Assembly: GCF_964204865.1 (NCBI RefSeq)
Contig: NC_135254.1
Span: 21,382,199 to 21,446,198, forward strand
Origin: Styela clava
Lineage: Eukaryota
Direction: 5' to 3'
Length of the DNA: 64,000 nt
The notes beneath the pieces were generated by a model that was given only the letters and a program-made list of their open reading frames with translations, was not told where the DNA came from and made no database searches. Position numbers and translations under genes: made by a program. Below, piece after piece: positions 6,230 through 50,802 of the stretch (position 1 is its first letter; each line of letters opens with the position of its first letter).

Positions 6230-6299
6230 GCGTGATTGGAAGTTCCAACGTGTTGGTGCACAAGCTGGGAGACGGCGGCTACATATCTGGCGAAGGAGG

Positions 6300-28536: not shown

Positions 28537-31075
28537 ACAAGATTATTAAGTAGAACACAATTTAATACATACAAGACTACTAAATAGCACACAATTTAAT
28601 ATTTATAATCTTTAAATTATTATGCAGTTATACTTAAAGCCTGCTATTCAATATACCAAGGCTCTTATCCCATTTAATATCTAACTTTCCAGGGTAAGCT
28701 ACCTCTAGTAACCTGTTTCCTGTAGCACATGCTCATAAGTATAACTGCAATATGCTTTATCAGTTGTCTTCATCACAATGAATAATTTGTTTCAGCCAAT
28801 CAGGACAATCATATTTATTTTTTCATGTTCTTTGGGACTACTTGATTCTAAACTTTGCCATAGAATGGGCCTATGTTCATTTTGACAGTAAATATGTGGG
28901 ACTGAAAGGGCCTAAGTCCAGCATATTGGACATAGGCCTGTTCTGTTCTCAACACCTCTATGATTATAGCATTCCTAAGTCCAGCTAAAATTTTTATTAT
29001 TGAGAAATTCAGGATTTCAAGACCACCATCTTGTAGAGCATGGCTCAAAACCCCAAAATATTGAAAAAAGTGAATTTTGCAAAAATGTGACTTAGGCCCC
29101 TTCTGTTCTCATCCGGCGATATATTGTTGAATAAATTGAATGGATTCCCCAATTTTTGTGAATTTATTGTATTGCATTAACAAAAATATTTGTCCGGCCC
29201 ATTTCAACATAGTTTGAGTCATACCCGGCCCACGGTCGAAAAAGTTTGGTGACCCCTGTTATATAGGAATAAAATAAAATCTGAATTTCTGGAAGGATAA
29301 ATTTTGGTATGCAATCTCGTTAACCTAACAATGACAGGGTTCGGGTTAGGAACAGAATTCTCTGAATTTTTTTTTGAGATCACACATTGAGCAAGTGGTA
29401 TCATGTACAAAAGGAGTTTAATGACGCATACCAAAGTAGCGTCCAAATTTTTTTACAATGTTTACAAATGCATAAATGCTTTGATAGTGATTTACTGGCA
29501 ACACAACTTTCTTAAAAAAAAATTAAAAAAATTTGTTGTTGTTTTGGTTACGTAAAATTATAAATGCAAAACAAGGTAACGAGCTATTGTGCGAATTTTT
29601 TTCCGAAATTTTACCAAGGAATTATCATTTGACTAGTAGAATTGCCATTATTGGTGTCAACAAAACTTATATTATTCACAGTTTTATTTTTAGTATTTTA
29701 TATTGCCGCTTTTCAACTTTTCGACATAGTTAATGCTTTGTTCTTTGCCCGCGAATTATGCTGGGCCTTGCACGAAATCAATAACGTGAAAAGATACGTC
29801 CAGCGGTGAAAATTGTTTATAACAACTTTAGATCTAGTTAATTTTTTAGCGATAATAATTAATTGTTGTAATGAAACACAGTTTGCCTCTTTCATTTCTC
29901 TCGCAAGTGCCAACAATAACACTATTGAAAGATTTTGACAATGAGAAAATCATTTTAAATTGTACAAAATGAATTAGTTGTGCAAAACCGTGGCGCGTGA
30001 TCGGCGGTGCGTTTGAAGACGGAGTATGACCCGTGCTGGCGCGCATTTTTCACGAAAATGTGAGGTGCTCCGAAGGCGCCCTGATCCACATTATTGTAAG
30101 AAAACAGTTATAATATCGGTAACTATTAACCGTTTAATTGCGTTTGACTATCGCACTTTTCGGAAATGGTAATTTTGTAAGGCGGGAACAACATGTGTTT
30201 TTGCGAAATTATTGGGGGGGCGACTGCCCCCCCTCGCCCCCCCGGGTGTCCGCCCCTGCTCTACCTGGTTTTACTTTGAAATGCTGAAAGTTTGTCGCGC
30301 ATTTGCAAGTCCCCACGGCGAAACCATTGGGAACCGCTACATTGCACCGTTTTTCTTTATCAATATAACCCTTTCATTTTTTGGTGTTCCGCGAGGAGAT
30401 ATAAAAACTGTGGCCGAAAAATGGAAACTTTCACGTATAGCAAAACAAAATATTTCATCATCTATCCGCTGAAAGGAATATGCGGTGCGGTAACCTAACA
30501 GTACCATACCTGTAGCCCTGATATTCGATCGCGGGACCGCCTGAAACAATTTAAAAACAGTGTTCCATGATTTTTGATGTCACAATCACTAACGCTTACA
30601 TTTATCCTAATACAGTGTAACCATGTTTCCCATGTGCCGAAACATCACTGTCCATCGGCTAAATGCTTGATTGAAACATCAGCGCAACAGTTAATACAAG
30701 ATAGAATTTTATAATATTGCACATCCCTAAACGTGTCGTTGGAAGTTAAGTTTCAGTAAACAGAAAGGTTGGTGATGAGCACAGACAATTTCAAAAAACT
30801 GGGAAATGCAATATTTCTTTGTTGAGCGTATGAGCATCCTGACATGTTTTATCTGCACAATTGAAGTTGCTGTGCACAAGGAATACAATTTAAACGAGTT
30901 GCTCAGCTTTTATTGTGGAAAACCTGATGTGGCCCGGACTCATTTGAGACTCTGCCCCAGCAAAGCTGCCCCAAAGAAGCTTCACGTACCGGCAGTTGGG
31001 AACCACTGTTCTAGTACATCGTTACATTACACCAGTTATACGAGTTGAATTTGGTTCAAATTTGGTTTGGAAAAA

Positions 31076-31252
31076 ATGGTTCAATCTTTGATATATTTTA
31101 GGAATAAGTTGGTAAACAAAAGCCTTCAGAAAAACATAGAAAACAAGAAAAAAGTTATTGTCCCCAATAAAAGATGGCTTCAACATTTCACTGACAAGGA
31201 TGCGAAGGTTGGTTGCCGAAACTTTAAGACCTTGATTCTAGACATGGGATAA
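31076..31252 (+). CDS. PARP4-like gene A, candidate first coding exon (start of PH-like domain, ...NKRWLQHFTDKDAK)
   Basis: An ATG at 31076 follows an in-frame stop at 31046. The exon ends AAG|GTTGGT (donor). The ...WL.HFTDKD.K end is conserved with gene B exon 43163..43222. Further upstream exons cannot be excluded. Confidence 0.4.
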   Translation: MVQSLIYFRNKLVNKSLQKNIENKKKVIVPNKRWLQHFTDKDAKVGCRNFKTLILDMG

Positions 31253-31570
31253 CAGTTCAATGTTGAATTTTTTATCAGGATTGGCAGATTTGAGACATAT
31301 TCATGGGTCTAAATATTTGTATGGGCATTTTTAAAAGCCATAGTTCACTGTTGTGAATAATAATTGCTTCAATATATAACATTGTACGGATAATTGTATA
31401 TGCAGGAAGTTTCTGGTTATTTTTCATATCTTATCCTATTTTAAATATTTGAAATGCTATCATTCACCATTGAATTTGAATTTCAAAGATGATAATAGCT
31501 TTAAGTACTGCAATTTTTATTACTGCTTAAATTATCAGATTGTATGATATATTATTTCTTTGCATGCCAG

Positions 31571-31648
31571 ATAAGGCGACACTTCTGGTGTATAGATGAT
31601 GACTATGTCACACTTTTCTTGACTGAAAGTGAATCACTATTTTTCAAG
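31571..31648 (+). CDS. PARP4-like gene A exon 2 (PH-like domain; IRRHFWCIDDDYVTLFLTESESLFFK)
   Basis: Flanked by acceptor CAG at 31568-70 and donor GT at 31649. It is 78 nt, phase 0. It is 24/26 aa identical to gene B exon 43376..43453, which has the same length and canonical splice sites. Confidence 0.6.
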
Positions 31649-32643
31649 GTAATAAATAGTTCTATAAGCAATTTTGTCTACCATATCCAACATTGAAGTT
31701 GTTTAAATTATCTATCATGATTCATGTCTTATCAATTTCATAATTTCTTTTATTTTGCTTTTTTTATTTATAAGAAGATACCGCATAAAAAAATCATGGT
31801 AATTAGCTGAAGCAATCAATGTATTCATTGTGTTATCTCATATAGAAAAGCAGAATTGCTGGGGCGTTAAATGAGTGCTCATAAGGAAGGAAGTGTTAGG
31901 CAACATATCAGACATGTGATGATTCAGTGTCAATCAAAATATACAGACCATAAACAAAGTAATAGACAACTTGGGAACCAATCTAAGTGGGTTGAAGCAG
32001 AGAATAAGAGGATGAAGCAGGCCATAATATTTACCTCATGGAATGAAATGACAAAAAAATTCATCTGGCAATAATCTGACAATGGCTTTATTGTGTTACT
32101 ACATGTGATCATTAAATTTTATGCTGTCTTGAAGTTGTTTAAGGAATTGTATAACATTAATACCCAAACTGTGTTAGGTATTCTACTAGTGGTTATGAAA
32201 ATTTACTGCAAGTGAATGAATATGTTTTTCTATGATTCCGTTGGTTTTACAATAATTATTATAAATTGTTCCAAGTTTCTGTCTTATCTTCCTTTGACTC
32301 AATACCACTCAGGAATGCTGTGTATAGTTTTTCTAACTCGAAATGCTAGTTCTCGACAATTTAATAATCATTGGGCAGGGATCATGTACCTATCTGTATA
32401 AGACATAACTTATAATGCGCTCTGAGTGATTTTGTACTTTAAAAAAGTCAGCTATTCTGTGGAGGTGATGGCGATTGTTAATTAATAATCGTAGTGCAAT
32501 TATAAGACCATTCTGTGGTTCAATCCGGCTTTATATAAGCAATTTTTTACGTCATTTTTTACGTCATTCAATTAATAACATTCAATGAAATTTGAAACTC
32601 AGTACCATACCTCATTTATGTCCATCGATTTTTCTTCTCACAG

Positions 32644-32774
32644 AAAATTCTTTTGACGGATATCATGTCAATCAATAAGGGCAAATGTTCTCAATCATTG
32701 AAATATGATTTCAAGTTAACTTTATCAAATTTGACTATTTTTGTCTTTGAGGATTTATCAAAGGATTTTGACAT
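32644..32774 (+). CDS. PARP4-like gene A exon 3 (PH-like domain; KILLTDIMSINKGKCSQSLKYDFKLTLSNLTIFVFEDLSKDFD)
   Basis: Acceptor TTCTTCTCACAG and donor GTGAGT. It is homologous to gene B exon 43703..43824, which is 9 nt shorter and in the same phase. Confidence 0.55.
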
Positions 32775-32909
32775 GTGAGTCTTTAATTGTTGTTGTATTG
32801 TTGGTTTTTAAATTCCTCGTATGTGTTACTATTTGTTAACATTTAGCTGTTATCAGTTGGTAAGTGTAGTTTGTTTCTATTTGAGCCATAACCTTGTCTT
32901 TGCTTCAAG

Positions 32910-32992
32910 GAATCAAGAAAAGCATTGGTATGACATACTGAAACAAGCGCATTCGTCTGCTGTAAATCATGAGAAGATTGCCAATGTGAATG
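32910..32992 (+). CDS. PARP4-like gene A exon 4 (PH-like C-terminal helix; ..EKHWYDILKQAHSSA..)
   Basis: Acceptor CTTCAAG and donor GTAGGC. It is 83 nt, identical in length and phase to gene B exon 44039..44121, and carries the conserved HWY..LK.AHS.AV helix. Confidence 0.55.
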
Positions 32993-33282
32993 GTAGGCAA
33001 TGGGTTTAAATGAACTATTTTATTGCTGTATTTTCATCCCAATGATAATATATATATATTTTATATTGCCAAGATAAAATTGGGAATTGGGTATACTTCA
33101 TAACACTTCAATTATCATTGTATATTGTAGCACAGCTGATGTTTGGTGAATAGAGATATACTTTTTATCTCATGTCAAAATTAAAAATTCACTCATAGTC
33201 TCTATGCTTCTTGCACTTCTATTAATTGGAACATTTTCAATTTAATATTGTTCACCAAACAAGTTTGATTTTGTATTGTCAG

Positions 33283-36200
33283 AAAATGAAAGAGTTCCAA
33301 AGAAGAAAAATATATTTGATAAACTTCAATTCGCCCTTGAACTTGGAGATGCATCATTTGAAACAAAGAAGACTTTACGTGAACAGATAACAAGTCATGG
33401 AGGACAAATCTCATACATATTGACCAGTAATACTGATTTTATAGTTCTTTGCAAGGAATTGATTGCCCAATCTATGCATTCATATAAAATTCGCAAAGCA
33501 GTTGCATTTGGCGTACCTATTGTTAGTGAAGAATTTCTCACAGAATGTGTAGGGAAGAATCAACTTGTCGATTTCATGGATTTTGCTCCGCAGACTGATA
33601 CAATTCACAATTTTTCGTTGGGAAAAATATCATCACAACCCATCAATGTAAAAAAGTTTGTTTCTAAAAAATTGGACCTTGGAAAAATTGTACAATATAA
33701 ATTAGAATCTGGTGACTGTCCTTGTTTTCCAAATAAATATGAAGTTCCCAAATTTTCGATTTTAACAAAAAGTTTTGAAGAGAATGGTGAAATTAATGAA
33801 ATGTGTTGTGTTGAAGCACAGGTTGGTATAACTGCAAATCAGAATAATCAAAAGATGTATAGAGTCATGGTTTCATATAACAATATTAGCACTTGCTCAA
33901 CTCATCACGTGTATCCATTAAATAATTCATTTGAGTTAGTCCAGTGTTATGAAAAACTTGTAACACAGTTCCTTGATGATGGAATGAAACGAGCTATTGG
34001 AATTTCAAAGGATCAATTCTCTGATATTGTTTCACCTTCACTCAACCTTGTTTTAACGGAAATGAAAATTTCATCAGGAATTCTCCATCCTGAAGTCGCA
34101 CGATTAGTCAAAACTATTTGGCTGGATTCGCTAGACGAAATAATGATGACATTTGGTGTCGGGCCATATGGTATTGATGTTGAACAAGTCAGAAATGCAT
34201 TGATTGTTCTGATGCAAATAGAAAAGTCCATCAAAGAGAAAGATTTCAAATCAGCTTTATCTGACAAATTTTACCACTTTATTCCACAGACAGATGATAA
34301 AAAAGAACCAATTGACAGCATTCAAAAAATTGCAAAGAAAAGAGAATTATGTCAGCTTTTAAAAGACATCACTTTAGTGAATGAGACTTCTTGGTTTTCT
34401 AAGGACTGTAATGATTCTTTATCACAATACACCGCATTGAAGTGTGCTATAATGTGGATTGACCCAAAAGAAAAAGAATATAAACTCATCAAAGACACAC
34501 TTCCTGACATCGATGGAAAAACATACAAATTGCAAAATATATTCAGAGTCAGTCGCTCTGTTGAAAACTCGCAGTTTAAATCAGATATTGGCAATACTAA
34601 ACTTCTATTTCATGCATCCCACCCTCATAATTTTGTTGGTATTTTATCGAGAGGTTTAATGTTGCCACTCACACTGTCTAGTGAGTATGGAGTCTCAAGG
34701 AGTGATGAAGGAAACCTTGGCGCTGGAATTTATTTCTCAGATTCATTTTGGATGTCTTCAAAATTTACCGCACGAAGCCAAAGTCGAGGTTCCAGAATAA
34801 TGCTTGTTAGTGAAGTAGCACTGGGAAAAGTATTCAACACAAAGGAACCTATGGCCCATTTATTGGCTGCACCAGTGGGTCACGATAGTGTGAAACGCAC
34901 GCATGCCACAGATGCAGTTAAATCTGATGCTTCAGAATATGCAGTGTATAACAAAAATCAACAGAGGATGTGCTACATCATTGAATTCACAATTGATGAT
35001 GATAGTTTGGTTAATCATGACAAAGTAGTGATACCTTTAAGTTTTAAGATGAATAAGAACACTACCGCTGAAATTGCTGCTGAGCGTGAGAATTTTGAAC
35101 CAAAAGTTGAGGAAGTTAGATATGGCCTGATCATGGAATCAAAAGATATTTCTGCAATATTAGAGGAAGTTCATATCAGAGCAAAAGTTATTGATTTGGT
35201 GTCAGAAGTCACTATTTTTCAGTCGTACATCAATACAACCAATAAAACTGTTGAAGCAAAATATGTTTTTCCTCTCACTGAAAACGCTGCTGTATGTGGA
35301 TTTGAAGCTTTTATAAATGACAAACATGTAATAGGAGAAGTTAAAGAGAAAGAACAAGCCCACAAGGAATATAAAAAAGCAGTAAGCGAAGGTCATGGAG
35401 CTTATTTGATGGATGAAGAGAAATCTAATGTATTTTCTGTTAGTGTTGGTAACATTCCTCCTGCAGCTCGCGTAATCATTAAAATTAGTTATGTTGCTGA
35501 GCTCGAAACTACTAACGAACCTGACAGTAATGTTTTATTTACATTACCAGGAAGCATTGCTCAATGGGAGGAAAAATCTGTGTTGCTTTCAAGTTCTGCT
35601 ACTCAAGAAGTTACGGAATCAACTTCTGTTTCAAATGAGAAAAAATCTTCAGTTATAATATCAATTGATATGCCGTTTGATATTCTCGATATCACTTCAC
35701 CTACTCATAAAATTGTAATGAAAAAGACATCTACAAAGGCTTGTGTAAAACTGCAAAAGTCAATTAACCTGGATGGAAACAATTTTCGTTTGCTGATCAA
35801 AGTAGCTGAAATTCATGTTCCTCGTATTTGGATTGAAAAGGAAAATGAAGAAAGCAAAGATCAAGTGGCAATGGTGACTTTTTTTCCTGAATTTGAATTC
35901 GATGCAGTAGAGAATTTCAATTGCACAGTAATGTTGGATATGTCGAATTCCATGAAAGGATCTGCTGCATGTCATTCTAAGCATTTATGTTCATTGCTTA
36001 TCGAAAATTTGCCAGATCAATGTGATTTTAATGTCATCTCATTTGGGTCATATTTCGAAGAGGTGTTCATTGGATTTGAAAATGTTTCAACTACTTCTAA
36101 AAAACAAGCAAAAGATTTTATTACATGTTGTAAACCATCTTTTGGAGGATCTGATCTTTTTTACATTCTTAATTCAGTCTTCCTACTTCAAAATAATTCA

Positions 36201-39200
36201 TACAATAATGAGTTACATAATATATTCCTCTTTTCTGATGGTCATTTGTCTGAAGAGGAAAGACTTTTCAGGCTTTGTAAGGAAATTTCAAAAACCAGTC
36301 ATTGTCAAACAAGAATTTTTACATTTGCTGTTGGAAATTCACCAGATAACCACACTCTACAGAGTTTATCTATATTAACTGGAGGGTCTCATGAACAATT
36401 CTTATCTTCGTCAAAGAGGACATGGAAAAGACAATTAAGCAATCAACTATTCAATGCTAAACAACCTGCATTAACTGATGTACATATTGATTGGTGCAAC
36501 TATGATAACAAATCCGATGGTTTTCAAGATTCAACTGTTTTGCAGGTTCCAGAAAAAGTAAAATGTGTGTTCAGTGGATCTCAACTTGTCGCATACAGTT
36601 ATGTTCCAAACTGTCTGAAAGCAACTCTTTGTGCTAATATTAATGGAAAAGAGTTCTCTACAATGGTAAATGCGAACGGATTATCAAAAATTACTGGAAT
36701 GACATTGCACAGACTTGCAGCAAAAGCTGTGTTCAAGGAACATGACTGTGGTAGACTTGCTGATGATGCTTTGTGTGATCAGATGTTGAAAGAGGAAAGA
36801 AAGTCAATTATTATTTCAATGAGTATGAAATACTCAGTTGTTTCAAAATATACAAGCTTTGTAGCTATTGAGGAAAGAAAACCTGGAGAAGATTTAAGCA
36901 TAACATGTGGACCATCTCTATCTAATCTTGTTGATGAATCTTTCATTGATATCATTTCTGAAGTAACATGGGGGGCTGAAGAGAAATCTGTGGAAGAAAA
37001 TGTGGATGAACTACTGAAGAAGTCTTTGCAAATTCAATCAAGTTCTATACTGCAATCTCGGGATTTAGCTCTGGAAGCAAAAGCATTGCATAGCACATTG
37101 GAAGAAAAAGATCCACTGAGGAAGTTACGAATATGTGCGACGTTATGTAAATTGGATGTGAACAGCGATCAACTTGATGCATGGCTTGATTTGAAAACCA
37201 TGTTGTTGAAAACTGATAAATCACTGAATTTTGAAGTGATGAACACGATCGCTAAATTTGACAATTCATCGCCCAGACATAATTTGTTGGATATTTTTAG
37301 TAGCTGTTTTCCTGAACACTGTTCAGTCCATCTCCAATCTATTCCTGAAATTTTTCAGCCACTTGCCATTGGAGGATACACTGAAATCTGTCATTTTTAT
37401 GAAACTGTGGGAGAATGTTTTAGAGATTTTCCTCTTTTTTGGGAAGAGTTTCATGATGTTTGTTGTTGTGATGATAAGAGTTATAAGGATGTTTCTTTGG
37501 CATTGAAAGTCTTGATCAGAGAATTGAAGTTTATAAATAAACCTCACAAAAAGAAAAAAAGGTACAAGCCCAAATTATGCCCATTTTCAATAGCCACCCC
37601 ACCATCATCACTACCTAGGCCTCTACAAGCTGTTCCACCACATCTAACACCAATACCAGCAAATTCATCTCTATTTGGATCAGCAAGATCAGGTATTTCA
37701 CCATTACCACCACAGCAATCTTTTCTCTTTGCATCATCTGGTCCTCCGCCACATCCACCACCTGGATCTGACTTTACACCATTACCACCACCATTACCAC
37801 CGAAACCATCTGTATTTGGATCAGCAATTCCACCACCACAACTACTACCTGGATCAGGTATTTCACCATTATCACCACAGCAATCACTTCTATTTGGATC
37901 ATCTGTTCCGCCACCTCCACCACCTGGATATGACTTTCCACTACCACCAAAATCATCTCTATTTGGATCATCTGTTCCCCCACCACAACCACCTCCGCCA
38001 CCTGGATCTGTCTTTCCACCATCACGACATCAACAACCACCAAAATCATCTCTATTTGGATCATCTGTTCCCCCACCACGACCACCTCCGCCACCTGGAT
38101 CTGACTTTCCACCATTACCACCACCACTACCACCAAAATCAGCTCTATTTGGATCATCTGTTCCCCCACCACAACCACCTGGATCTGCCTTTCCCCCATC
38201 ACCACATCGACAACCACCAAAATCATCTCTATTTGGATCATCTGTTCCCCCACCACGACCACCTCCGCCACCACTACCACCAAAATCATCTCTATTTGGA
38301 TCATCTGTTCCCCCACCACGACCACCTCCGCCACCACTACCACCAAAATCATCTCTAGTTGGATTAGATGTTCCCCCACCACGGGCACCTACACCACCTG
38401 GATCTGCCTTTCCACCATCACCACCACAATCATCTTGTTTTGGATCAAGTCCTCCACAACCACCGCTTCCAAAATTTAGATCTGTCATCCTACCACAATT
38501 GCGAAGTTCTGGATTTGTATCAGCCACTCCAATATCGCAACAGTATCAAACTGAATCTGCCATACCACCTCAATATCATTTAAGCAATATAACTTCTTCA
38601 TTTCTTTCGATGACTGACCCACTAGTTCCATCGCAATCTTCAGTCCAATCAGCAGCAGGTTTTTCATTTGGTTTGGCCAGGTCTTTTGCATCGCGAAATT
38701 CAATGCGGTCAGTTGCTTCATTTGGATATTCGTCCACTTCCAGGCAATCAAACACCCCACTACCTACACAAGCTGCGTGCATGGTATCAAATGCTGAACT
38801 CACTTCAGATGATAGTTTTGACACTAAACCATCATATCATCATTCTTCTGAGGTTGCTAGAAGTAATTTTTATGAAGAGTGTGAGGATTCATATTTGTTA
38901 CCAAAAACGAAAAATCTATTATCCAGAAAATCCGAACAATCTCAAGATATTGAAACCAAACAAATTTTTGGTGGAAGATCTAAATTTGACAATTCACATG
39001 AACCACAGGATATTTATGAGAGCTTGGAGGATCTTAAGTCACAACAATTAAAGACCAGTGGAAAAAGAAGAAACCCACCAGTAGTTCTTACAAGGTCTTC
39101 TCAAAGTTGTGAAGTTATGTTTGATTCACTTGAATGTGTTCAGACAGATACATCTACATTAAACTCTGAAAGTTCATCTGATATGTATGAAGATATAATA

Positions 39201-39230
39201 TTGTTAAATCAACATTATGACCTGGTTATG
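33283..39230 (+). CDS. PARP4-like (vault-PARP-like) gene A giant exon: BRCT, PARP helical regulatory domain, PARP catalytic (ART) domain, VIT, vWA, Pro-rich repeat region, Ser-rich tail
   Basis: A 5.9-kb open frame with a splice acceptor (TTGTCAG) at 33276-33282. It has a BRCT-like N-terminus. An HD-like block (..ALSDKFYHFIPQ..) follows. The ART motifs are LLFHASHPHNFVGILSRGL, GAGIYFSDSF, LVSEVALGK and ASEYAVYN, giving an H-Y-E triad. VIT spans KYVFPLTENAAVCGFEAFIND...VIIKISYVAELE, then the vWA MIDAS motif DMSNSM follows. The donor GTAAGT sits at 39231. Confidence 0.85.
37660..38460 (+). repeat. intragenic tandem repeat, about 10 units of 90-96 bp, encoding (K.SSLFGSSVPPP[RQ]PPPPPGSDFPPLPPPLPP)n
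   Basis: Recurrent TCTCTATTTGGATCATCTGTTCCCCCACCAC(G/A)ACCACCTCCGCCACC units are visible. Poly-His, Gly-rich and Val-rich ORFs in the other frames and on the opposite strand are by-products. Confidence 0.85.
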
Positions 39231-39581
39231 GTAAGTTATTTTTATGAACTATTTTACTTGATTACCGATGAATATATCTAGACCTGCCGTGTTACTTCCC
39301 AATTATATCTATCTGCCTGAACTAACGCAGACAATATGCCAGGAATTTAATATTTTATGAAATGTCTGTACTATTTGCAATAATTTGTTGAATGGGTTGA
39401 AGAAATGTAAATTTAGCTTTGTTTTTTGACACAAAAAACACTTCATATTGAGTGTTCATTTCATTATTTGTTTGTTCATTCTTATTTCTATACAAATCGA
39501 TTTATTGATGAGTAAAGCCATCCACATTTATGAAGTAATGCTGAAAGTGCATAAAATTGGTAATTCACATTTTATCAACAG

Positions 39582-40121
39582 ATTGAGGACGAGGATGACG
39601 AATTAGAACAGTCTAGCGGATCCATCAGTGCTGCATGGGATGATGATTCTGAATGCACGGAATATGAGTGGAAAATGGTTAAAGCTATGATGAAACTCCT
39701 TAACCTCACAGTTAGTGAACTAATGGAAATTTTCAAATCTGGATTAAGTCCAGATGGCTTTTGGAAATTTCCTAGCAATGAAGCCATCATGTCTGAAGAG
39801 TTTTCTGAAATTGAAGTTAAACTATTGAAAATTTATCGAGAAATAGTCATTTCTGCTGGTGCGCTATCTTTTGGTAGCAAAGTTTTGTCCACAGTGTTAG
39901 ATATGCTGTATACAGCGATTATCATAAAAATTCTTAAATTTATTAATGAATCAAGTAAAGTGTATGACATGATAAAAGATGCTGAAAACTGGTTGAAATT
40001 AGCTGATGCGAAGCAACCATTTTTATATGAACGGCTAGAGTTAGGATCATCTTGGGAAATGGCTGCAAATGCAGTGATTGTCAAAGTGTCTGAGGCTGTG
40101 CTCAATTCTATCTCTGGTTAG
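39582..40121 (+). CDS. PARP4-like gene A terminal exon (conserved C-terminal module; stop at 40119-40121)
   Basis: Acceptor TTTATCAACAG at 39571-81, in frame with the donor at 39230. The translation IEDEDDELEQ...GFWKFPSNEAI...VISAGALSFGSKVLSTVLDMLYTAII...LELGSSWEMAANAV is about 55% identical to the C-terminus of gene B (GFWRFPDEETI...VISAGAQSLGSQVLSLVTDMLLTAIV...LELGSSWEMAAKLV). Confidence 0.7.
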   Translation: MEDEDDELEQSSGSISAAWDDDSECTEYEWKMVKAMMKLLNLTVSELMEIFKSGLSPDGFWKFPSNEAIMSEEFSEIEVKLLKIYREIVISAGALSFGSKVLSTVLDMLYTAIIIKILKFINESSKVYDMIKDAENWLKLADAKQPFLYERLELGSSWEMAANAVIVKVSEAVLNSISG

Positions 40122-40564
40122 ATTAAGTGGAGTGGAATTTTCAATGTATTCAAATGTATCTGCTCTAGTAGGTTTTGAGTAATACACATTCCCAAATATA
40201 GAAATCATGCTTTTAAAAATAATTTAGATTTTGAAGTTTATTTGCGCTGATTTTCATACACATAGATTGAATACTTACAATTGTAAAGATGATTTTGTTG
40301 TGAACTTTATCTATACATCTTTGTTCTATATCTATGTTATTTTGTCTATTGTATTTGCAATGTCGAGTCTATAAACTCATATTTCATTTTATACAAGTTA
40401 TCTCAAATCAAAGTAGAACACAATCAAAGAGGACAAAATTTGGTGATCAAGTTTTAGTATTTATGAACCTGGGGATACTTTCTAAGTATCTGAAATCGTT
40501 CATGGTCACGAAGACCTATGGATCGTTTTGGTATTACCGTATGTTGTTGTTTTCTTGTTTCTCA

Positions 40565-40860
40565 TGAAAATTTCGCTTTTCTCTTCAAATGGACCAATTG
40601 CTTTGAAATTTTCAGTGGTTAAAAATTGTATTTGTTGCTAGAAAGCTATTACTTTTATTCAATTAAGAATTTCTGTGGGCCCCATGAATTTTTGTGTAAT
40701 GCTGTCATCAAAATGAAAAATTGTGCACCCTGTGGCAGTTCCCCTTTCTGGTTGTCAGTTAAAGTCCGGAAGTGTATGTATCGGTACTGCTAAAGATATC
40801 ATACTTGTATTACTTGGCCTTTGTGTCCATATATGTGAGCATTGGTTCCTTTTGTTATAT
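40565..40860 (+). repeat. repeat family R1 copy
   Basis: Shares the CGCTTTTCTCTTCAAATGGACCAATTGCTTTGAAATTTTCAGTGGTTAAAAAT start with the other R1 copies. It lies in the intergenic spacer between the two PARP-like genes. Confidence 0.55.
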
Positions 40861-42195
40861 ACAGATGACTATTGTCATTTTTGAGAATAATCTATTTTTC
40901 AAAATATTTGATATATTCTAACAAATATGTAAACACAAAATACAGTGAGTAAAAAATGTTGACCTACATTCTATTTATTGCTTATGGCAGAAGAAATCTT
41001 ACAACTATAGTTTCTATTCTCTCAAACTATTCTTTGGGTCAGTTTCTAATATTTTTCTGTGGTCAGTGATTTTGTTAATGTCTGCTAAAGAGTATTAACT
41101 TTTTTGAGATCAGTAACAATGTACAGTTTTGATTTTCACGTTTGATATTGATTTAATTCTTAATTGGTGATAGTGTTATTAGACTATAAGTCATTTTGTA
41201 TTACTCAATTGCTATTCAGTTATTGTTCATTTCTGCGCTTTGATAATTTTTCACTTTTAATTTTATTATTAGCCAAGAGAATACCATGTTATTCTACAGG
41301 TTTTTAAATCCATTTCTATTCTCTTTCTTTAAGATATTCACATATCACTTCTATTCCTCTGTTTTTGTATACAGTTCTCTTTCTCTTGATGATTCTATAG
41401 TCAAGTTCCGGAAATGTTGAATTATATTATTCTTGTGTTCTTTGTGAAATATTATTTGTATCATATATTATATAAAAGTTTCTGTATGCTGTAGTTTATA
41501 CTGTTGTTTGGGAAGTTGAGGTATTCTTTGCTAATTGAGTATTAAACTGCTCAGTCATAAACTTTCTATCATTATGTTTATGAAAAACAAAATTTAATGT
41601 TATTACTTAATATATTTCTTGTTGTGATTTAATTAGTATCTATTACTATTAAAATATTTTATCCATGTTGTTTTGTCTGTAATCAAGTTCCAATTGTTGG
41701 TAATATACTTTGATATTATTTGAAAGTCTGCATTCTTCCATCAAGTTGACCAACAAATTATTTCATTAGAAAAATAACTCCACCTGAGTTGGCTATCTCT
41801 GAATCATGTTTGTGGTATTTAAAAATTTTTTTTCCTGATATTTGCGGGGGATATTAAATGATGATTCTTGTATATTCTAATTGCTGAACCTATTTGTTAT
41901 ATTCAGATTTTTATGTAAAATAATAATATATCAGGAAGGTATTATGGAGTTTGACTATTTATGGAATATTAGCTATCTGATATAGTAACCCGATCTTGCA
42001 TGGCCTTACTTTGTGGATTAATATTAGCCAAGATATAAACTACTGCCTACATCATGGGAATAAATAGATTAGAGGTTAAGTATAAAGTCTTTGTCTTTAA
42101 ATGTTTGAAAACTAGTTTTCTTATGTTTCATTGATAGCAATTATGTTGCATCTTTTTAATTATATAATTTTTAATTTATAATCCGAATTTCTTGA

Positions 42196-42490
42196 GTAAA
42201 TGCTCAGCAGTGTGGCGCATTGAGCTATGCGTTAAATTTACGCTCGTTACCGCACCACTGATTACCCTGTGAACCCAGGTTTGCAGGTTCGAATCCTGTG
42301 GGGAAAAATTATGTAAGAGAGGATTGCTGGATTCCTTCTGGTTCACGGGATCCCATACACGACATGGACTGCGGTTCATGTGATCCCATACTCGACATGG
42401 ACTGGTAACCGGACGAGAGGCCGTGTTTCACTGTGATTAAGCTATCTTATTGGTTTTTCTCTCCCGGGATAAATAAATAAATCTTATCCT
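42196..42490 (+). mobile_element. tRNA-derived SINE copy (intergenic, between the PARP-like genes)
   Basis: The tRNA-like head has GGTTCGAATCC. The body contains ATCCCATAC.CGACATGGACTGGTAACCGGACGAGAGGCCGTG and the tail CCCGGGATAAATAAATAAATCTTATCC. Confidence 0.75.
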
Positions 42491-43162
42491 TAATATGTGA
42501 ATTGTTTGTTTTACAGGACTTTGAAGTGAAAAGTAAGCATATTTGTCATAAACTGAAGAAGAGCAATTGCAGATTGAAGTCTTGTAGTGAAAAAATGTGA
42601 GTCTGATATCCCCAAGAAAATCAAGCTCTAAATTTTTTTTTGATTGAGTGTATTGAAATTGTGGGGCCATTACCGTGTCAATGTTTTCAAGTTATAGTAA
42701 GATACAAAATCATTTGAAGGGTTTAGGATATATTTTAATACCTAATCTCGTCAATTTCCTATTAATATTCGATCGCAAAATGGATATTTTACAACTAAAA
42801 CTATAAGAATTATTATAGTGAATGTGTCATATCATTCTGGTTTGTTTTGTGATTTTAGTGTATGCTGAAAGCTGTGACGACACATTTCTAAACCTACCGT
42901 AATTTGAAACATGGTTATAATAACCTTAAAGTTGCACTTGTGTTTTGAACTGAAAAAATAATTTTCCTATATTATTAGCATCACAAATTTGCCGATTATT
43001 ATTTATCATTGGTTAGCATATCCCTCCACATGGCTATCTGATAGGTGATACTATAATATCGAAAGCACTCTAAAACCAACTTGAATATACTCTTTGTTGT
43101 TGTTTAGGAAAAATCTAGTACTGGATAGTACTGGATCTCTGCAGAACAGACATGAAAAGGAA

Positions 43163-43222
43163 ATGAACCTCATTGATTCTAATAAAGGATGGTTGTATCA
43201 TTTCACAGATAAAGATCCAAAG
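43163..43222 (+). CDS. PARP4-like gene B candidate first coding exon (MNLIDSNKGWLYHFTDKDPK)
   Basis: An ATG at 43163 lies in an open frame. A possible acceptor TTGTTTAG sits at 43099-43106, so this may be an internal exon. Donor AAG|GTTTAT. It is homologous to the end of gene A exon 1. Confidence 0.4.
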
Positions 43223-43375
43223 GTTTATAAATAAGTAATTTCCACCCATGATATTTATATATCGAAGACTAACTGAGAGACTTTGAATTTGTAAACTGAA
43301 TAGGAAGGTATTTCTCAAGACCAGATTTCTAAATATAAATTATACATGATTTTGGAATATTTTATTGATTGTCAG

Positions 43376-43453
43376 GTACGACGACACTTCTGGTGTGTTG
43401 ATGATGAATATGTCACAGTTTTCTTGACAGAAAGTGAATCATTGTTTTTCAAG
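43376..43453 (+). CDS. PARP4-like gene B exon 2 (PH-like; VRRHFWCVDDEYVTVFLTESESLFFK)
   Basis: Acceptor TTGATTGTCAG and donor GTAATG. It is 78 nt, paralogous to 31571..31648. Confidence 0.6.
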
Positions 43454-43702
43454 GTAATGTGGATGAAGTTCATTGTTTAATATTCAGATACATCTGCCAT
43501 ATGTAATCTGAAAAGAAGAATAGGTATCGAATATTTAACATGCTATCTGAAAGTTTAATTAATGCAAATGGTATTTAAAATGAACTGAGAAAATTGGGAA
43601 TGTAATGTAAAGCATTAAAGTAGCATTCTGTTAGTTCTTTCAGTATAAAATAGTATTTTACATTTCATGATAGAGTGATGATATATGTTTTCACCTATTA
43701 AG

Positions 43703-43824
43703 AAAATTTCATTAGCAAGCATCAAATCAATCAAAGAGAGCAAGAAGTCCAAGTGCTTGTTCAAGCTGGTTCTATCCAACATGACTATTTTTGTGACTAG
43801 CAGTGATTCTGAAAAGTATAAAAT
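43703..43824 (+). CDS. PARP4-like gene B exon 3 (PH-like; KISLASIKSIKESKKSKCLFKLVLSNMTIFVTSSDSEKYK)
   Basis: Acceptor CCTATTAAG and donor GTAAGA. Paralogous to 32644..32774. Confidence 0.55.
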
Positions 43825-44038
43825 GTAAGAGTTTATGATTATACCAATCATAATTTTGTTATTGTAAAAATCTAGGATTATTGTGAACATAAAATTACAT
43901 ATTAATTCTACTGATTTGTGAATTTACTTTTTGATAAATAAAATTGTAAAATTTAAAATACCTTAACCGGTGTTTCACTGTGGGATAATATTTTAGATGC
44001 ATTTGATTTTTAAGTTGAAGTATATGATTTTTGTTAAG

Positions 44039-44121
44039 GATTCTGATGAACCATTGGTATAATATGCTTAAAGAGGCCCATTCTGCCGCAGTAAAACGGG
44101 AGAATACTGTGCTACCTCTTG
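44039..44121 (+). CDS. PARP4-like gene B exon 4 (PH-like C-terminal helix; ..NHWYNMLKEAHSAAV..)
   Basis: Acceptor TTTTTGTTAAG and donor GTATGT. It is 83 nt, paralogous to 32910..32992. Confidence 0.55.
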
Positions 44122-44701
44122 GTATGTTGTGTGACTGTTATTACAAATAGTCTTAGTCAATGTATTATAAATGAGAAAACAGCAGATGCTTTTAAATATT
44201 AATCTTGTTGCTAACAAAAAAGTCAATAATTTTATATTTACTCTTTTGTTAATAATTAACTTTACCAGATTTTTGAAAATGAATCATTATATTGAGTATT
44301 TCCAAGTGTCCAGCAATGCTATTTGTTTACTTAATTTTGCCCATTTTGCTGACCATTAATTTTGATTATTATTAAAGATGTTTGTTAACATCTGCATACC
44401 CAAGAAATATCAAACTATCTGTTCATTTAATATTTTAATTTTAAATTATTTGATTCTATACATTGCAACTGTATCTATGTTTGAATATATATTTGGATAT
44501 CTTGAAATAGCAATAGAAAGATTTACATGATTATTTACATGACTTACATATGATCGCTTTTGATTATAAACTGAAACAAACAATATGAACATTGTGCAAA
44601 CATGAATTTGTGGTTGTGATTTATTTCATACCCGAACAGGATTGCTTTGTGATACAGTTTGTTGTTGATTCAAGAAAACTTATATAAATACGTCTATCTT
44701 T

Positions 44702-44996
44702 CAGTGGTTGTCAAACTTTTTAATCCGTGCCCCCTTTTTGAAATTTGTCAAGTCTCGCTCCCCATATAAAAAATAGCTTACAATAGGCTACGAATAACAG
44801 ATAGTAAGGCGAAAATATGTTATATCCAAAAAACATGTTGAAAGTGCATGGACGGAAAGTAACTAATGAAAAGTTTTGAAATGTAAATATCCAAAATAAG
44901 ACGGGCAAGATCAAATCTAACAAACTAGCTTCACGCCCCCTCAAAAAAGTATCTACGCCCTCTTGTGGGGTGCAGCCCACCGTTTGAGAACCACTG
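44702..44996. mobile_element. non-autonomous hAT element (MITE) inside intron 4 of gene B
   Basis: Termini are CAGTGGTTGTCAAACTTTTTAATCCGTGCCCCC and ...CCCACCGTTTGAGAACCACTG. It ends 77 bp upstream of the giant-exon acceptor. Confidence 0.6.
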
Positions 44997-45073
44997 ATTT
45001 AGACAACACTAATCCCAGTTGCAAAAAAAAAACAGTTCTTAGGGATCATTTTTTACCTATTTGTTGTTTTCAG

Positions 45074-48000
45074 AACAAAAAAAACTCTCAAAACATGGAA
45101 GCATTTTCAAGAAACTTCAGTTTTCTCTGGAACTAGGGGATACGACGTATGAAGCAAAGAAACATTTGCGTGAACAGATCACTAGTAATGGAGGACAAAT
45201 TTCCTATATTTTAAATGGAAATACTGATTATCTGATTGTGTGTGAGAGAAAAACTTCCACATCGAGTAAGTCCTACAAAATTCACAAGGCAAGAGAACTA
45301 GGAATACCCATTGTGAGAGAGATCTTCATAACAGAATGTATTGAAAACGATAAAATTGTTGATTTTCTGGATTACGTTCATGGAAAACCAATTGTTGAGA
45401 GTTATTCTGCTGGGAAAATATTGGTTTCTAAGGCAAAGCCGAAGGAGCCTTCTGAAAGATTCGAAGTAGAAAAAGTCATTAAATATAAAGTTGATGCTGG
45501 AGACTGCCCTGTTTTTCCAGATAATTTCCAAGTAGCCAAATACTCTATTCTCGCAAAAATTACTGAAGAAAGAACACCAAATGATATGTATTGTGTTGAA
45601 ACACAGGTTGGGTTACACGATAACTGCAAAACAATATTTCGCGTCATGGTTTCCTATAAAAATGTCAGTGGTGTATCATTTTGTCATGTTTATCCTGTGC
45701 AAACTTCATCAGAGGTGGTTCAGTGTTATGAGTCCTTGGTAAAGCAGTTTATCGCTGATGGATTCAAGAAAGTCATTGGAATTCCTGGCGATGGGTTCTC
45801 TGGAATTGCTTCTGCTCCACTGAGTTTGCTTTTAAATGAAATGAAAATTTCATCTGGAATTATTCATCCCGAGGTCGCTCGATTGGTAGAATCTGCGTGG
45901 TTAGAATCTCTTTGTGAAATAATGACAAATTTTGGTGTTGAACCTTTTACTATACATCATGAACAAATTAGGAATGCAATGATTGTTCTGATGCAGATAG
46001 AAAATTCAATCAAAAGAAAAAGTTTTAAATTGGAATTATCAAATAAGTTTTACCAGTTTATTCCCCAAAGAGATGGTAGGAAGGAACTGATAGACAACAT
46101 GCAAAAGATCGCAAAAATGAGGGAATTATGCCAGCTTTTGAAAGACATAACCTTGTCCAATGAAACTTCTTGGATTTCTAAAGACTTCAATGATCGCCTG
46201 TCACAATATACCGCATTGAAGTGTGCTATAATGTGGATTGACTCGAAAGAAAAAGAATATAAACTCATCAAAGACTTACTTCCTGATAATATCGATGGAA
46301 AAGGATACAAAGTACAAAATATATTCAGAGTCAGTCGCTCTGTTGAAAACTCGCAGTTTAAATCAGATATTGGCAATACTAAACTTCTATTTCATGCATC
46401 CCATCCTCACAATTTTGTTGGTATTTTATCGAGAGGTTTAATGTTGCCACTCACACTGTCTAGTGAGTATGGAGTCTCAAGAAGTGATGAAGGAAACCTT
46501 GGCGCTGGAATTTATTTCTCAGATTCATTTGAAATGTCTTTGAAGTTTACAGCTCGAAGCCAAAGTCGTGGTTCCAGAATAATGCTTGTTAATGAAGTAG
46601 CACTGGGAAAAGTATTTTATACAAAGAATCCCATGACTGATTTGATAGTCGCGCCAGAAGGCCATCATAGTGTAAAAGGTACAGGTCTAACAAAATTTGA
46701 TGATGTTGACGACATTGCATCTCATGCTTCAGAATACGCGATATATGATGCAAGGCAACAGAAGTTACGCTACCTTATTGAATTTACAACGACTGATGAC
46801 ATCATGACTATTTATGACAGAGTTCCAGTCCATTTACCTTTTAAACAAAAAGAGGATAAGCAGGTGAATGAAACAGTGGGTGATAATGAGAATTTTGAAC
46901 CAAAAGTTGAGGAAGTTAGATATGGCCTGATCATGGAATCAAAAGATATTTCTGCAATATTAGAGGAAGTTCATATCAGAGCAAAAGTTATTGATTTGGT
47001 GTCAGAAGTCACTATTTTTCAGTCTTACATCAATATGACCAATAAAACTGTTGAAGCAAAATATGTTTTTCCTCTCACTGAAAACGCCGCTGTATGTGGA
47101 TTTGAGGCTTTTATAAATGACAAACATGTAATAGGAGAAGTCAAAGAGAAAGAACAAGCTCAAAAGGAATATAAAAAAGCAGTAAGCGAAGGTCATGGAG
47201 CTTATTTGATGGATGAAGAGAAACCTAATGTATTTTCTGTTAGTGTTGGTAACATTCCTCCTGCAGCTCGCGTAATCATTAAAATTAGTTATGTTGCTGA
47301 GCTCGAAACTACTAACGAACCCGACAGTAATGTTTTGTTTACATTACCAGGAAGCATTGCTCAATGGGAGGAAAAATCTGTGTTGCTTTCAAGTTCTGCT
47401 ACTCAAGAAGTTACGGAATCAACTTCTGTTTCAAATGAGAAAAAATCTTCAGTTATAATATCAATTGATATGCCGTTTGATATTCTGGATATTACTTCAC
47501 CTACTCATAAAATTGTGACGAAAAAGACATCTACGAAGGCTTGTGTAAAACTGCAAAAGTCAATTCACCTGGATGGAAATAATTTTCATTTGCTGATCAA
47601 AGTAGCTGAAATTCATGTTCCTCGTATTTGGATTGAAAAAGAAAATGAAGAAAGCAAAGATCAAGTTGCAATGGTGACTTTTTTTCCTGAATTTGAATTT
47701 GATGCAGTAGAGAATTTCAATTGCACTGTAATGCTGGATATGTCGAATTCCATGGAAGGATCTGCGGCATCCCATTCCAAGCATTTGTGTTCATTGCTGA
47801 TCGACAATTTGCCAGATCAATGTGATTTTAATGTCATCTCATTTGGGTCATATTTCGAAGAGACGTTCATTAGATATGAAAATGCTTCGACTACTTCTAA
47901 AAAACAAGCAAAAGATTTTATTACATGTTGTACACCATCTTTTGGAGGATCCGATCTTTTTTACATTCTCAATTCAGTATTCCTACTTCAAAATAATTCA

Positions 48001-50802
48001 TACAATAATGAGTTACATAATATATTCCTCTTTTCTGATGGTCATTTGTCTGAAGAGGAAAGACTGCTTGGGCTTTGTAAGGAAATTTCAAAAACCAGTC
48101 ATTGTCAAACAAGAATTTTTACATTTGCTGTTGGAAATTCACCAGATAATCACACTCTACAGAGTTTATCTATATTAACTGGAGGTTCACATGAACAATT
48201 CTTATCTTCATCAAAGAGGACATGGAAAAGACAATTAAACAATCAACTATTCAATGCTAAACAACCTGCATTAACTGATGTACATATTGATTGGTGCAAC
48301 TATGATAAGGAATTCGATGGTTTTCAAGATCCAACTGTTTTGCAGGTTCCAGAAAAAGTAAAATGTTTGTTCAGTGGATCTCAACTTGTCGCATACAGTT
48401 ATGTTCCAAACTGTCTAAAAGCAACTCTGAGTGCTAATATTAATGGAAAAGAGTTTTCTACAATGGTAAATGCAAACGAATTATGCAAAATCACTGGAAT
48501 GACATTGCACAGACTTGCAGCAAAAGCTGTGTTCAAGGAACATGACTGTGGTAGACTTGCTGATGATGCTTTGTGTGATCAGATGTTGAAAGAGGAAAGA
48601 AAGTCAATTATTATTTCATTGAGTGTTAAATACTCGGTTGTTTCAAAATATACAAGCTTTGTTGCTATTGAGAAAAGAAAACCTGGAGAAGATTTAAGCA
48701 TAACATGTGGACCATCTCTGTCTGATCTTGTTGATGAATCTTTTATTGATATCATTTCTGAAGTAACATGGGGGGCTGAAGAGAAGTCTGTGGAAGAAAA
48801 TGTAGATGAACTACTGAAGAAGTCCTTGCAAATGCAATCAAGTTCTATACTGCAATCTCGGAATTTAGTTCTGGAAGCAAAAGCATTGCATAGCACATTG
48901 GAAGAAAAAGATCCCCTGAGGAAATTACGAATTTTTGCAACTTTATGTAAATTGAATGTGTTCGAGGATAATTTCAATGGATGGACTGAAATGAAGAATT
49001 TGTTGTTGACAAGAGGCAAAGTGTTGAATTTTGATGTGATAAATGCTATCACAAATGCTGAGGATTTGACTTTCCTACAAGATTTGTTTGTTGTATTCAA
49101 GAGTTGTTTTCCTGAACACTGGACAATCCAACTTAGTTCTGTTCCAAAAAAGTTTCAAGCACTTTCTGTTGGCGCTTTTTCCGAAATTGTTGGTTTTTGT
49201 GAAGATTTTCCAGACTGTTTTGAAAAGGTCTCCATATTCTGGGAAAAGTTTCGCAAGATCTCATGCCATGATGAAAAGGCAGATAAATATCTTTATTTTA
49301 AAACAAAAGAATTGATCAGAACATTCAAATCTTCCATTCTCCCGCTGCAACTATCAGATATATCTGAATATATTGAAAAAGAGAAGACTGTCGTTGGGAG
49401 ACTGTGTGCAAAATCAAGGCGTAGTTCTTTCCTGCACAGGCCTCATAAAACTTCTTTGATGTCTGAATCAAGTGCTAAAAAATCATCTGCACCAAAAGTA
49501 CATTCTGATCAAACAGATCATTTCGGGGGTATTCCCACTGGAGTTGAAGGCACTGTTAGCGATGATATAAATAGGAATGTTGGTAAAGCTGTTATTTTTT
49601 CTCCACAGTCTCCATTGAAAACAGTTTCCGTTCGACGATCGAGATCTATGAAGAAGAGAGTTATTAGTAAATACACTCCAATGCGTAATGATTCAGAACT
49701 TAGTCCTACATCACCAGTTATCAGTGAGAAAGCACAATCTTCAGCTTTCCACAATATTTCTTTAAAGTCAGCTCAGTTTAAAGTTCAGCGAAGACCAATT
49801 GCATCTATAGATGACTGCTTGTGTCTGCCAGATGTGACTCAGACATCTTTTCAAGACCTCCATCATGACCTAAAATTGTTATCCAATTATGATGATCTTT
49901 TGTCTGCTGCTTCAAAGTCTGACGATGCACAGCAACAACTTAATTATGAAGACTTCTTTTCAGATCCATGTACTCAAGAAATTGAAAGTATCAGTGTGAG
50001 TGAATTTTATGGATTTCCAAGTCAGTTAGAGGTAAAAACGGACTCCATTGGAGTGTTGGAAAAAGAAGAATTAAAATCATCGTATAGTGAAACGATGCAA
50101 TCCTCAAAATCTAGTTCTAATGGTAGCTGGTTATCTAGGTGCGATGATGAACATAAACAAGTTAATAATGTTTCACATGGAGTTCGTTATGTACCGGATT
50201 ATTTATCTGAAGAGATGGAACCAGACGAAAATGAAGAATATTTTGAAGATTTTCTTTCTCCAATAAGCACAAGTTCGTTTTGTGATACATTTTATACTGA
50301 TCTTGAGCATGATAAATATGCCGATGCATCCAACATTCTCGGAACAATAATGAAACGATTTAATCTCTCTGAGAGTAAATTAGTGGATGGTCTTGAACAT
50401 TGTGCAACACTTGGTGGATTTTGGAGGTTTCCAGATGAAGAAACAATTTCTTCTAATGAGCTATCTCCAGCTGAATATCAAATGCTTTCATTATTTCGCA
50501 ATGTTGTAATCTCGGCAGGTGCTCAATCTCTTGGCAGTCAAGTTTTATCATTAGTCACAGACATGTTGTTAACTGCAATTGTTTTGGAAATTCTTAAGCT
50601 TGTCGACGATGGAAATAACATGATTGTGAAGAATATGCTTGAGCGTGGCAAAAAATGGTTAAAATATGTCGATACATTAAACCCATCTCTGTATAAACGA
50701 CTTGAATTAGGTTCGTCTTGGGAAATGGCAGCAAAGTTGGTGATCAATCAATTATCTGAGAAGCTGCTGGAAGTAACAGATATAGCAATGCAGTCCAAAT
50801 AG
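45074..50802 (+). CDS. PARP4-like (vault-PARP-like) gene B giant terminal exon: BRCT, PARP HD, PARP catalytic, VIT, vWA, long Ser-rich divergent region, conserved C-terminal module; stop at 50800-50802
   Basis: A 5.7-kb open frame follows the acceptor TTGTTGTTTTCAG at 45061-45073. It has the same ordered domain motifs as gene A (LLFHASHPHNFVGILSRGL, GAGIYFSDSF, LVNEVALGK, ASEYAIYD, VIT block, DMSNSM). It lacks the Pro-rich repeat array and the 3' intron of gene A. Confidence 0.85.

Follow-up and report, generated by a model that had tools for sequence, protein, structure and literature searches.

PARP4 is the sole enzyme of the vault particle and, to our knowledge, neither its regulation nor what the vault does is understood. 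The human protein ends in a domain that interacts with the major vault protein (MVP), which has been delimited as the MINT domain at residues 1562-1724 (PMC12280208) and as the MVPID at residues 1570-1724, with a conserved Arg1689 (PMC10450202). The second system relevant here is protein kinase D (PKD), in which the PH domain is autoinhibitory, its deletion raising kinase activity, and the diacylglycerol-binding C1 domains recruit the kinase to membranes (PMC6768651).

The locus described here lies in a 64-kb window of nuclear DNA from the tunicate Styela clava (the window being the whole stretch that was analysed) and consists of a tandem, same-strand pair of PARP4-like genes, A and B. The genes themselves are not new, both being named PARP4-like in RefSeq already. 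What appears to be new, as judged from sequence comparison, is a PARP4 carrying a PH domain captured from PKD, the origin of which is unusually clear. The predicted architecture is a short leader, the PH domain, BRCT, a WGR-like linker, a helical domain (HD), an ADP-ribosyltransferase domain (ART) with the H-Y-E triad, VIT-vWA with the MIDAS motif, a disordered tail and an MVP-interaction domain. An earlier examination of the letters without database searches (the sequence-only reading) had proposed a PARP4 (vault PARP) architecture with an extra N-terminal PH domain, which is present in both copies. The fusion is taken to be real, while its function beyond the sequence can only be inferred; taken as a whole, the explanation set out below is considered probable.

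Identity and origin of the N-terminal PH domain

In both genes the PH domain is encoded by the end of exon 3 together with exons 4-6, at 31166..32992 in gene A and 43181..44121 in gene B (all features of the pair are on the + strand), and the domain of A is 57-60% identical to the modelled domain of B. Pfam gave little indication of it: full-length A and B had no PH match, PF00169 did not match A, and the isolated B domain scored 20.8 bits (E 5.8e-4) over profile positions 4-102 of 105, below the gathering score of 25.1. However, a phmmer search of B against PDB sequences matched the PH domains of PKD3 (2d9z) and PKD2 (2coa), and a two-sequence profile of A and B matched the same entries at 2e-9 and 1e-7, respectively. 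A HMMER scan of 1.84 billion representative proteins with the PH profile returned 48 matches, among which only the two Styela proteins were of PARP4 length; all non-Styela matches that were checked had the order Ubl-C1-C1-PH-kinase (or parts of it) or were named protein kinase D.

The fold was modelled for the B domain with AlphaFold2, using an alignment of 15 sequences (A, B and 13 PKD PH segments). The model had a predicted local distance difference test score (pLDDT) of 89.8, with strands at 8-15, 22-28, 32-36, 44-49, 53-58, 66-70 and 74-78 and a helix at 83-110. Seven strands followed by a C-terminal helix make up the PH topology, and at least 90% of the aligned sequences keep the Trp of the helix. 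A single-sequence prediction of B residues 1-217 reached a pLDDT of 46.7, its topology being suggestive but unusable. When the B model was compared with the PDB by Foldseek, 107 matches were obtained at E<=0.001, with the PH domains of PKD3 and PKD2 first, and the 50 matches listed of the 107 were all PH domains or PH-containing proteins. These results, from profiles and a structural model, show the N-terminal module to be a genuine PH fold of the protein kinase D type. The PH domain claimed from the letters alone is thus a true one by PKD profile, AlphaFold and Foldseek, and is refined to PKD-type, although it stays under the Pfam threshold; the "GWL" pattern given for it is found in B, but A reads RWL.

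The exon structure points to where this domain came from. In both A and B the PH coding sequence is split by three introns, and one of the exons so delimited is a 78-nt phase-0 exon (31571..31648 in A, IRRHFW...SLFFK; 43376..43453 in B, VRRHFW...SLFFK) with the same length, phase and alignment columns as a PKD PH exon. For this comparison, PKD proteins were mapped on the genomic loci of a stingray PKD3-like gene, the PKD gene of the acorn worm Ptychodera flava and that of a copepod (Lepeophtheirus). The 78-nt phase-0 exon also occurs in the stingray (L002 39681-39758) and acorn worm (L005 70387-70464) genes, where the junctions "...DS[LM]|RKRHYW...K[FY]YK|..." fall in the same columns as "...DKD[AP]K|[IV]RRHFW...LFFK|K..." in Styela. 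Two of the three Styela PH introns coincide exactly with introns of these two PKD genes, and the third, before the C-terminal helix, is without counterpart in them. In the copepod gene (L003 1028-1543) a different intron pattern replaces the 78-nt exon, so the match is with deuterostome PKD genes and not with all PKD genes.

Because the exon borders inside the PH coding sequence match those of deuterostome PKD genes, the PH domain appears to have been captured from a PKD gene at the DNA level. The simplest reading of the sequence is that a chordate PKD gene supplied three or four exons, which were copied into the 5' end of an ancestral PARP4. The capture preceded the tandem duplication, since both copies have the PH module and its synonymous divergence is saturated. 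No other part of a PKD gene accompanies it: the 78-nt exon of gene B was the sole part of a PKD protein found by tblastn in the window, C1 or kinase exons sought in this way gave no match there, and Pfam detected no Ubl, C1 or kinase domain in the A and B proteins. By its sequence the locus is not a PKD; it has borrowed only the PH exons of one. That the PH exons might be part of a PKD pseudogene was also considered, and this was rejected because the window holds no other PKD-derived exons and the PH domain is under purifying selection.

The distribution of the fusion was examined among PARP4-like proteins. A search with the closest non-Styela relative as query gave 474 of them, from sponges and cnidarians to mammals, and the best 120 of the 474 were combined with six Styela entries into a set of 126 proteins longer than 1200 aa. 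With hmmsearch the PH profile matched none of these 120 relatives (sponge to mammal), and the six Styela entries alone were matched. In the closest non-Styela relative (Logan SRR10746997, L001) the ATG stands just before BRCT, with in-frame stops 4-5 codons upstream; no PH exon was visible in the 332 bp of flank upstream of this ATG, a flank too short to exclude one. No PH-PARP4 fusion was found in the literature searched, and literature searches on PARP4 in tunicates and on major vault protein in Styela returned nothing relevant. The earlier remark that no PARP with a PH domain in front had been described therefore holds for the literature and for the proteins of other organisms, no such fusion occurring outside Styela among the 1.84 billion representatives. 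From these comparisons the fusion is unreported and, within the reach of the present data, seems restricted to Styela or close relatives.

Two side observations were made on the relatives. Among the best 120 of the 474 there was no tunicate PARP4 (e.g. from Ciona) besides those of Styela and the Logan contig, and other sequenced tunicates may have lost PARP4 or may have a strongly diverged one. Five invertebrate PARP4-like models (P0074, P0075, P0077, P0080, P0081) carried unexpected additional Pfam domains: 14-3-3 (Owenia), actin (Ephydatia and Actinia), HSP70 (a Logan protein) and ubiquitin (a Mytilus protein of 3322 aa). Either gene models were merged in these cases, or PARP4 has gained further domains in particular lineages.

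Gene models and PARP4 domains

The two genes contain very long + strand open reading frames (ORFs) at 33276-39281 and 45061-50802, whose best database matches were Styela clava proteins named "protein mono-ADP-ribosyltransferase PARP4-like" (second ORF 100% identical, first 97.6%). Gene A (22642..40121, 2328 aa) has eight coding exons (22642-22662, 22891-22970, 31102-31207, 31571-31648, 32644-32774, 32910-32992, 33283-39230 and 39582-40121), with GT-AG borders throughout and one terminal stop, and its spliced translation is exactly RefSeq XP_077968685.1 (2328 aa). Gene B (42054..50802, 2075 aa) has seven coding exons (42054-42074, 42517-42596, 43108-43222, 43376-43453, 43703-43824, 44039-44121 and 45074-50802), likewise GT-AG throughout, and its translation equals XP_039269913.1 (isoform X1, 2075 aa) except for 5 substitutions. 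The common exon plan of the two same-strand paralogues, with a giant uninterrupted exon in each (33283-39230, 5948 nt, in A; 45074-50802, 5729 nt, in B), is as the sequence-only reading had it.

Other parts of the earlier models had to be revised. Instead of four short 5' exons, each gene has two more 5' coding exons (22642-22662 and 22891-22970 in A, 42054-42074 and 42517-42596 in B), which were found from the RefSeq proteins by tblastn and motif search. The start codons proposed at 31076 (A) and 43163 (B) are not the annotated starts, the third exons beginning at acceptors 31102 and 43108, and the start of the locus was corrected from 31076 to 22642. The former exon 1 of gene A (31076-31252) has no GT donor and leaves an in-frame stop in the spliced product; the true donor is at 31207. 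The former gene B model, apart from the two 5' exons left out, splices at canonical AG/GT sites and contains no in-frame stop. The conserved MG[LI]NRL start of the two proteins was considered as a site of N-myristoylation and rejected, as Leu at position 6 is off the PROSITE consensus.

A question raised by the gene models is whether the PH exons lie outside the mature PARP4-like protein, being a relic of a partial PKD duplication, a small separate gene or a 5' untranslated region joined by prediction. The current RefSeq model of gene B, XP_039269916.2, corresponds to residues 125-2075 of our translation; its first residue, the Met of "MTIFVTSS" in exon 5 (43703-43824), lies within the PH domain, and a PH-less isoform of gene B may exist. 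Moreover, the PH domain is not called by Pfam, and the joining of the exons comes from gene models and not from transcripts; assembled public runs queried with the full-length A and B proteins for spliced transcripts gave no match. However, the six small exons of each copy have remained open, with canonical splice sites and phases that fit together, despite saturated synonymous sites, and in both copies exon 6 ends without a stop and the giant exon is entered in phase 1. In the pairwise comparison of A and B by the Nei-Gojobori method, the ratio of nonsynonymous to synonymous divergence (dN/dS) of the PH domain is 0.19, at a dS of about 1.5. Furthermore, RefSeq includes the PH domain in its current model for A and, for B, in the earlier X1 model. 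We therefore regard such a separation of the PH exons from the protein as highly unlikely, and keep to the reading of a PH-PARP4 fusion.

The remaining domains are those of PARP4. As had been proposed for both copies, the BRCT, PARP_reg, PARP, VIT and VWA domains all score above the Pfam gathering scores. BRCT lies at 33303..33575 in A (BRCT_2 1.7e-7, BRCT 7.5e-7) and 45097..45375 in B (BRCT_2 1.7e-8). The helical regulatory and ADP-ribosyltransferase domains are at 34083..34988 in A (PARP_reg 1.8e-7, PARP 1.8e-25) and 45811..46788 in B (PARP_reg 4.6e-9, PARP 5.1e-26; human PARP4 catalytic fragment 8sx1 3.9e-46). The ITIH-like region of VIT and vWA follows at 35160..36389 in A (VIT 1.9e-37, VWA_3 2.5e-18) and 46960..48189 in B (VIT 9.1e-38, VWA_3 3.8e-15). 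Human PARP4 residues 5-1222 align in one stretch (E 8.5e-189) from BRCT to beyond vWA, with the catalytic triad and DxSxS in register; the WGR region was covered as part of this continuous alignment, with no separate test. The triad residues of human PARP4 align with those in LLFHAS (H), GIYFSD (Y) and SEYA[VI]Y (E; SEYAVY in A), and the DxSxS motif of the MIDAS reads LDMSNSM in both copies, so that the catalytic and metal-site residues named in the sequence-only reading were correctly recognised. By every sequence criterion both genes are PARP4 orthologues or co-orthologues, and by homology both proteins would be active ADP-ribosyltransferases.

The C-terminal domain was characterised with a profile of four C-termini, those of A and B (last ~170 residues), the Logan-derived relative and a Lineus PARP4-like protein. 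LELGSSW is invariant in this alignment, and RLELG is conserved in A and B. The sole match of the profile in the PDB was human PARP4 residues 1578-1704 (E 5.2e-10), and since this falls within the MINT domain (1562-1724), the C-terminal domain of A and B corresponds to the MVP-interaction (MINT/MVPID) domain. It occupies the last exon of gene A (39582..40121), where the equivalents of S1614, K1618 and R1689 are conserved, and 50335..50769 in gene B, where those of S1614 and R1689 are conserved and that of K1618 is Gln. By homology, A and B would dock in the vault lumen via this domain.

The disordered tail of A carries in addition a proline-rich, FG-like tandem repeat array at 37938..38398, with units PPKSSLFGSSVPPPRPPPPP and Tandem Repeats Finder periods of 63, 93 and 177 nt, which is absent from B. 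Its Pfam Nucleoporin_FG score is 27.7 bits, under the cut-off of 32.2. RefSeq versions of gene A of 2036, 2067 and 2328 aa exist, and the copy number of this array differs among them; the older models have a frame shift near 38905 and end without the MVP-interaction domain. The version differences are either an assembly or haplotype difference or real polymorphism.

The surroundings of the pair hold transposon-derived sequence, as the sequence-only reading had noted, such ORFs being seen in the flanks and in an intron, all on the - strand. They comprise an ORF with a hAT dimerisation domain and DUF4371 (5345-7253), a reverse transcriptase ORF (9973-10557), a pair formed by DUF7869 and an adjoining 484-aa ORF without Pfam match (25913-28536) inside the 8.1-kb intron 2 of gene A, and a Pao retrotransposon peptidase (62714-63595). 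Further - strand ORFs of 182-218 aa without Pfam match lie at 18964-19973 and 60448-61104. A tandem repeat of ~170 bp (1.9 copies, 84% match) is present at 51446-51778, just 3' of the gene B stop codon.

Possible role of the captured PH domain

Akt R25, Btk R28 and the corresponding Arg of TAPP1 are essential for inositide binding, and Akt K14 is the first Lys of the inositide signature K-Xn-[KR]-X-R. In A, B and the aligned PKDs the beta1-beta2 segment reads GW[LM]xH[FY]T......[KR]-R-H-[FY]-W (with an RWL start in A; GWLYH-FTDKDPKV-R-R-H-FW in B), and this departs from the signature by having His in place of both the first Lys and the last Arg.

The sequence-only reading had suggested that the PH domain directs a catalytically competent ADP-ribosyltransferase to membranes or phosphoinositides. 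The PH fold as such would allow this, its structural neighbours including the inositide-binding PH domains of ARAP3, TAPP1, DAPP1 and PLEKHA7, and vaults have been found on endoplasmic reticulum and nuclear-envelope membranes in Dictyostelium (PMC13100048). However, the nearest relatives are the PH domains of PKD and not the lipid-binding ones, and the His residues at the positions of Akt K14 and R25 are shared by both copies and the aligned PKDs. The PH domain of copy B is net basic (+5), but that of copy A is net acidic (-3). In addition, it has been reported that PKD itself is recruited to membranes via its C1 domains (PMC6768651). The suggestion is weakened by the PKD-type PH domain, the His residues at the signature positions and the acidic domain of copy A, and a membrane-directed PARP is considered unlikely.

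A regulatory module is favoured instead of a lipid anchor because the segment H...R-R-H-[FY]-W is the PKD version of the beta1-beta2 motif. By analogy with PKD, the captured PH domain would work within the protein, as a regulatory or protein-docking element by which the enzyme is gated or positioned, and would not be a high-affinity phosphoinositide anchor. A PARP4 gated by signals in this manner might answer the inputs of PKD PH domains (tyrosine phosphorylation, G-beta-gamma, docking of protein kinase C) or go to membranes. In its widest form, this reading would mean that a chordate lineage rewired the sole enzyme of the vault, the capture of the PKD PH domain having made the Styela PARP4 a signal-gated ADP-ribosyltransferase; to this wider statement we give only a small chance.

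Several points weigh against the reading of a regulated vault enzyme and have to be considered together. The PH domain is below the Pfam PH threshold in both copies, and the alignment behind the AlphaFold model, made mostly of PKD segments, biases it towards the PKD fold. RefSeq/Gnomon models, the conserved reading phase and purifying selection are the grounds for joining the PH exons to the giant exon, and, given the start of XP_039269916.2, a protein lacking an intact PH domain may be made from B, either in addition to the complete one or as its sole product. The regulatory role is transferred from PKD, whose partner kinase domain is absent here. In the active site, A and B both have Phe where human PARP4 has the second nicotinamide-stacking Tyr (SIKY). 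Finally, the Gln of copy B stands at the position of an MVP salt-bridge residue (K1618, Lys in A), and the predicted docking takes MVP and vaults in Styela as given.

Divergence of the two copies and comparison with known systems

The two copies have diverged very unevenly. At the nucleotide level, the regions of PH, BRCT, the WGR-like linker and HD are ~60-75% identical, the N-terminal half of the ART 85-96% and its C-terminal half 59-72%. Identity rises to 93-99% between the start of VIT and about residue 1400, beyond vWA, drops to very low values in the disordered tail and is ~60% in the C-terminal domain. The dS values are 0.06-0.18 inside the similar blocks as against 0.9-2.7 outside them, and this difference argues for an old duplication followed by later gene conversion. 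The main conversion tract lies at 46897..48930 in B, with its partner at about 35088-37190 in A (identity 93-99%, dS 0.06-0.18), and a shorter one, also with low dS inside, at 46201-46605 in B with its partner at about 34359-34808 in A. Together, the homogenised VIT-vWA block and the N-terminal half of the ART amount to about 800 codons. Both copies, PH exons included, have been kept by purifying selection since the duplication; gene conversion has homogenised the N-terminal half of the ART and VIT-vWA, while the N-terminal regulatory part and the disordered tail have diverged. Such a pair, with a shared catalytic and ITIH core but diverged heads and tails, could give two differently regulated or targeted vault PARPs.

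It had also been proposed that both genes are functional, that they are rapidly diversifying and that they may form an innate-defence module. The first proposal is consistent with the intact frames, the dN/dS below 1 in every segment and the RefSeq models for both. The second is not shown, the tail alone being strongly diverged: pairwise dN/dS is 0.08-0.47 across all segments, as seen in a two-sequence comparison that is blind to site-specific selection, and large gene-conversion tracts are present. An antiviral arms-race module, with PARP4 copies diversifying fast under positive selection, would nevertheless find a parallel in primates, since primate PARP4 has been reported to evolve fast, with positive selection at sites of the disordered linker that precedes the MVP-interaction domain (summarised in PMC10450202). 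The same linker is the most diverged part of the Styela proteins, with indels, the repeat array of A only and a dN of about 1.07. However, dN/dS stays below 0.5 in every segment, and the N-terminal half of the ART and VIT-vWA are kept nearly identical by gene conversion. We consider an arms race rather unlikely, and a role in innate defence is speculation.

With the fusion of a PKD-type PH domain to PARP4 as the preferred reading, the locus would represent a clean and datable case of exon shuffling, in which a domain was gained with its intron positions and phases intact and the gene was afterwards duplicated in tandem, with mosaic gene conversion between the copies. A PARP4 with an added domain of known provenance, the PKD PH domain, may offer a handle on what gates the activity or location of the enzyme. 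The practical impact is limited, the fusion being seemingly present in one ascidian lineage and the genes being annotated as PARP4-like already.

Among the known systems, the invertebrate PARP4-like proteins (Lineus, Owenia, Acropora, Ephydatia and Logan SRR10746997) share with Styela the order BRCT-HD-ART-VIT-vWA-tail and the C-terminal domain with LELGSSW, and the Lineus protein also has FG-like repeats (SLFG), as copy A does. Unlike in Styela, the Lineus (P0004) and Logan (P0003) proteins begin directly at BRCT, and none of the invertebrate relatives compared matches the PH profile. The PH domains of PKD (PRKD1-3; 2d9z, 2coa) share with the Styela domain the segment GW[LM]xH[FY]T...[KR]RH[FY]W, the invariant helix Trp and the 78-nt phase-0 exon. 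In contrast to PKD, the Styela proteins lack Ubl, C1 and kinase domains and carry the PH domain at the N-terminus of an ADP-ribosyltransferase, with a shorter loop before the C-terminal helix and an extra intron there. The vertebrate PARP4 (VPARP; PARP clade 5) resembles the Styela proteins in having BRCT, WGR/HD/ART and VIT-vWA in one alignment, the H-Y-E and DxSxS residues, and a long disordered linker followed by a C-terminal MVP-interaction domain with the equivalent of Arg1689. Unlike the vertebrate gene, the Styela gene has a short leader and a PKD-type PH domain before BRCT, is tandemly duplicated with gene conversion between the copies, carries an FG-like array in copy A and has Phe in place of the second active-site Tyr.

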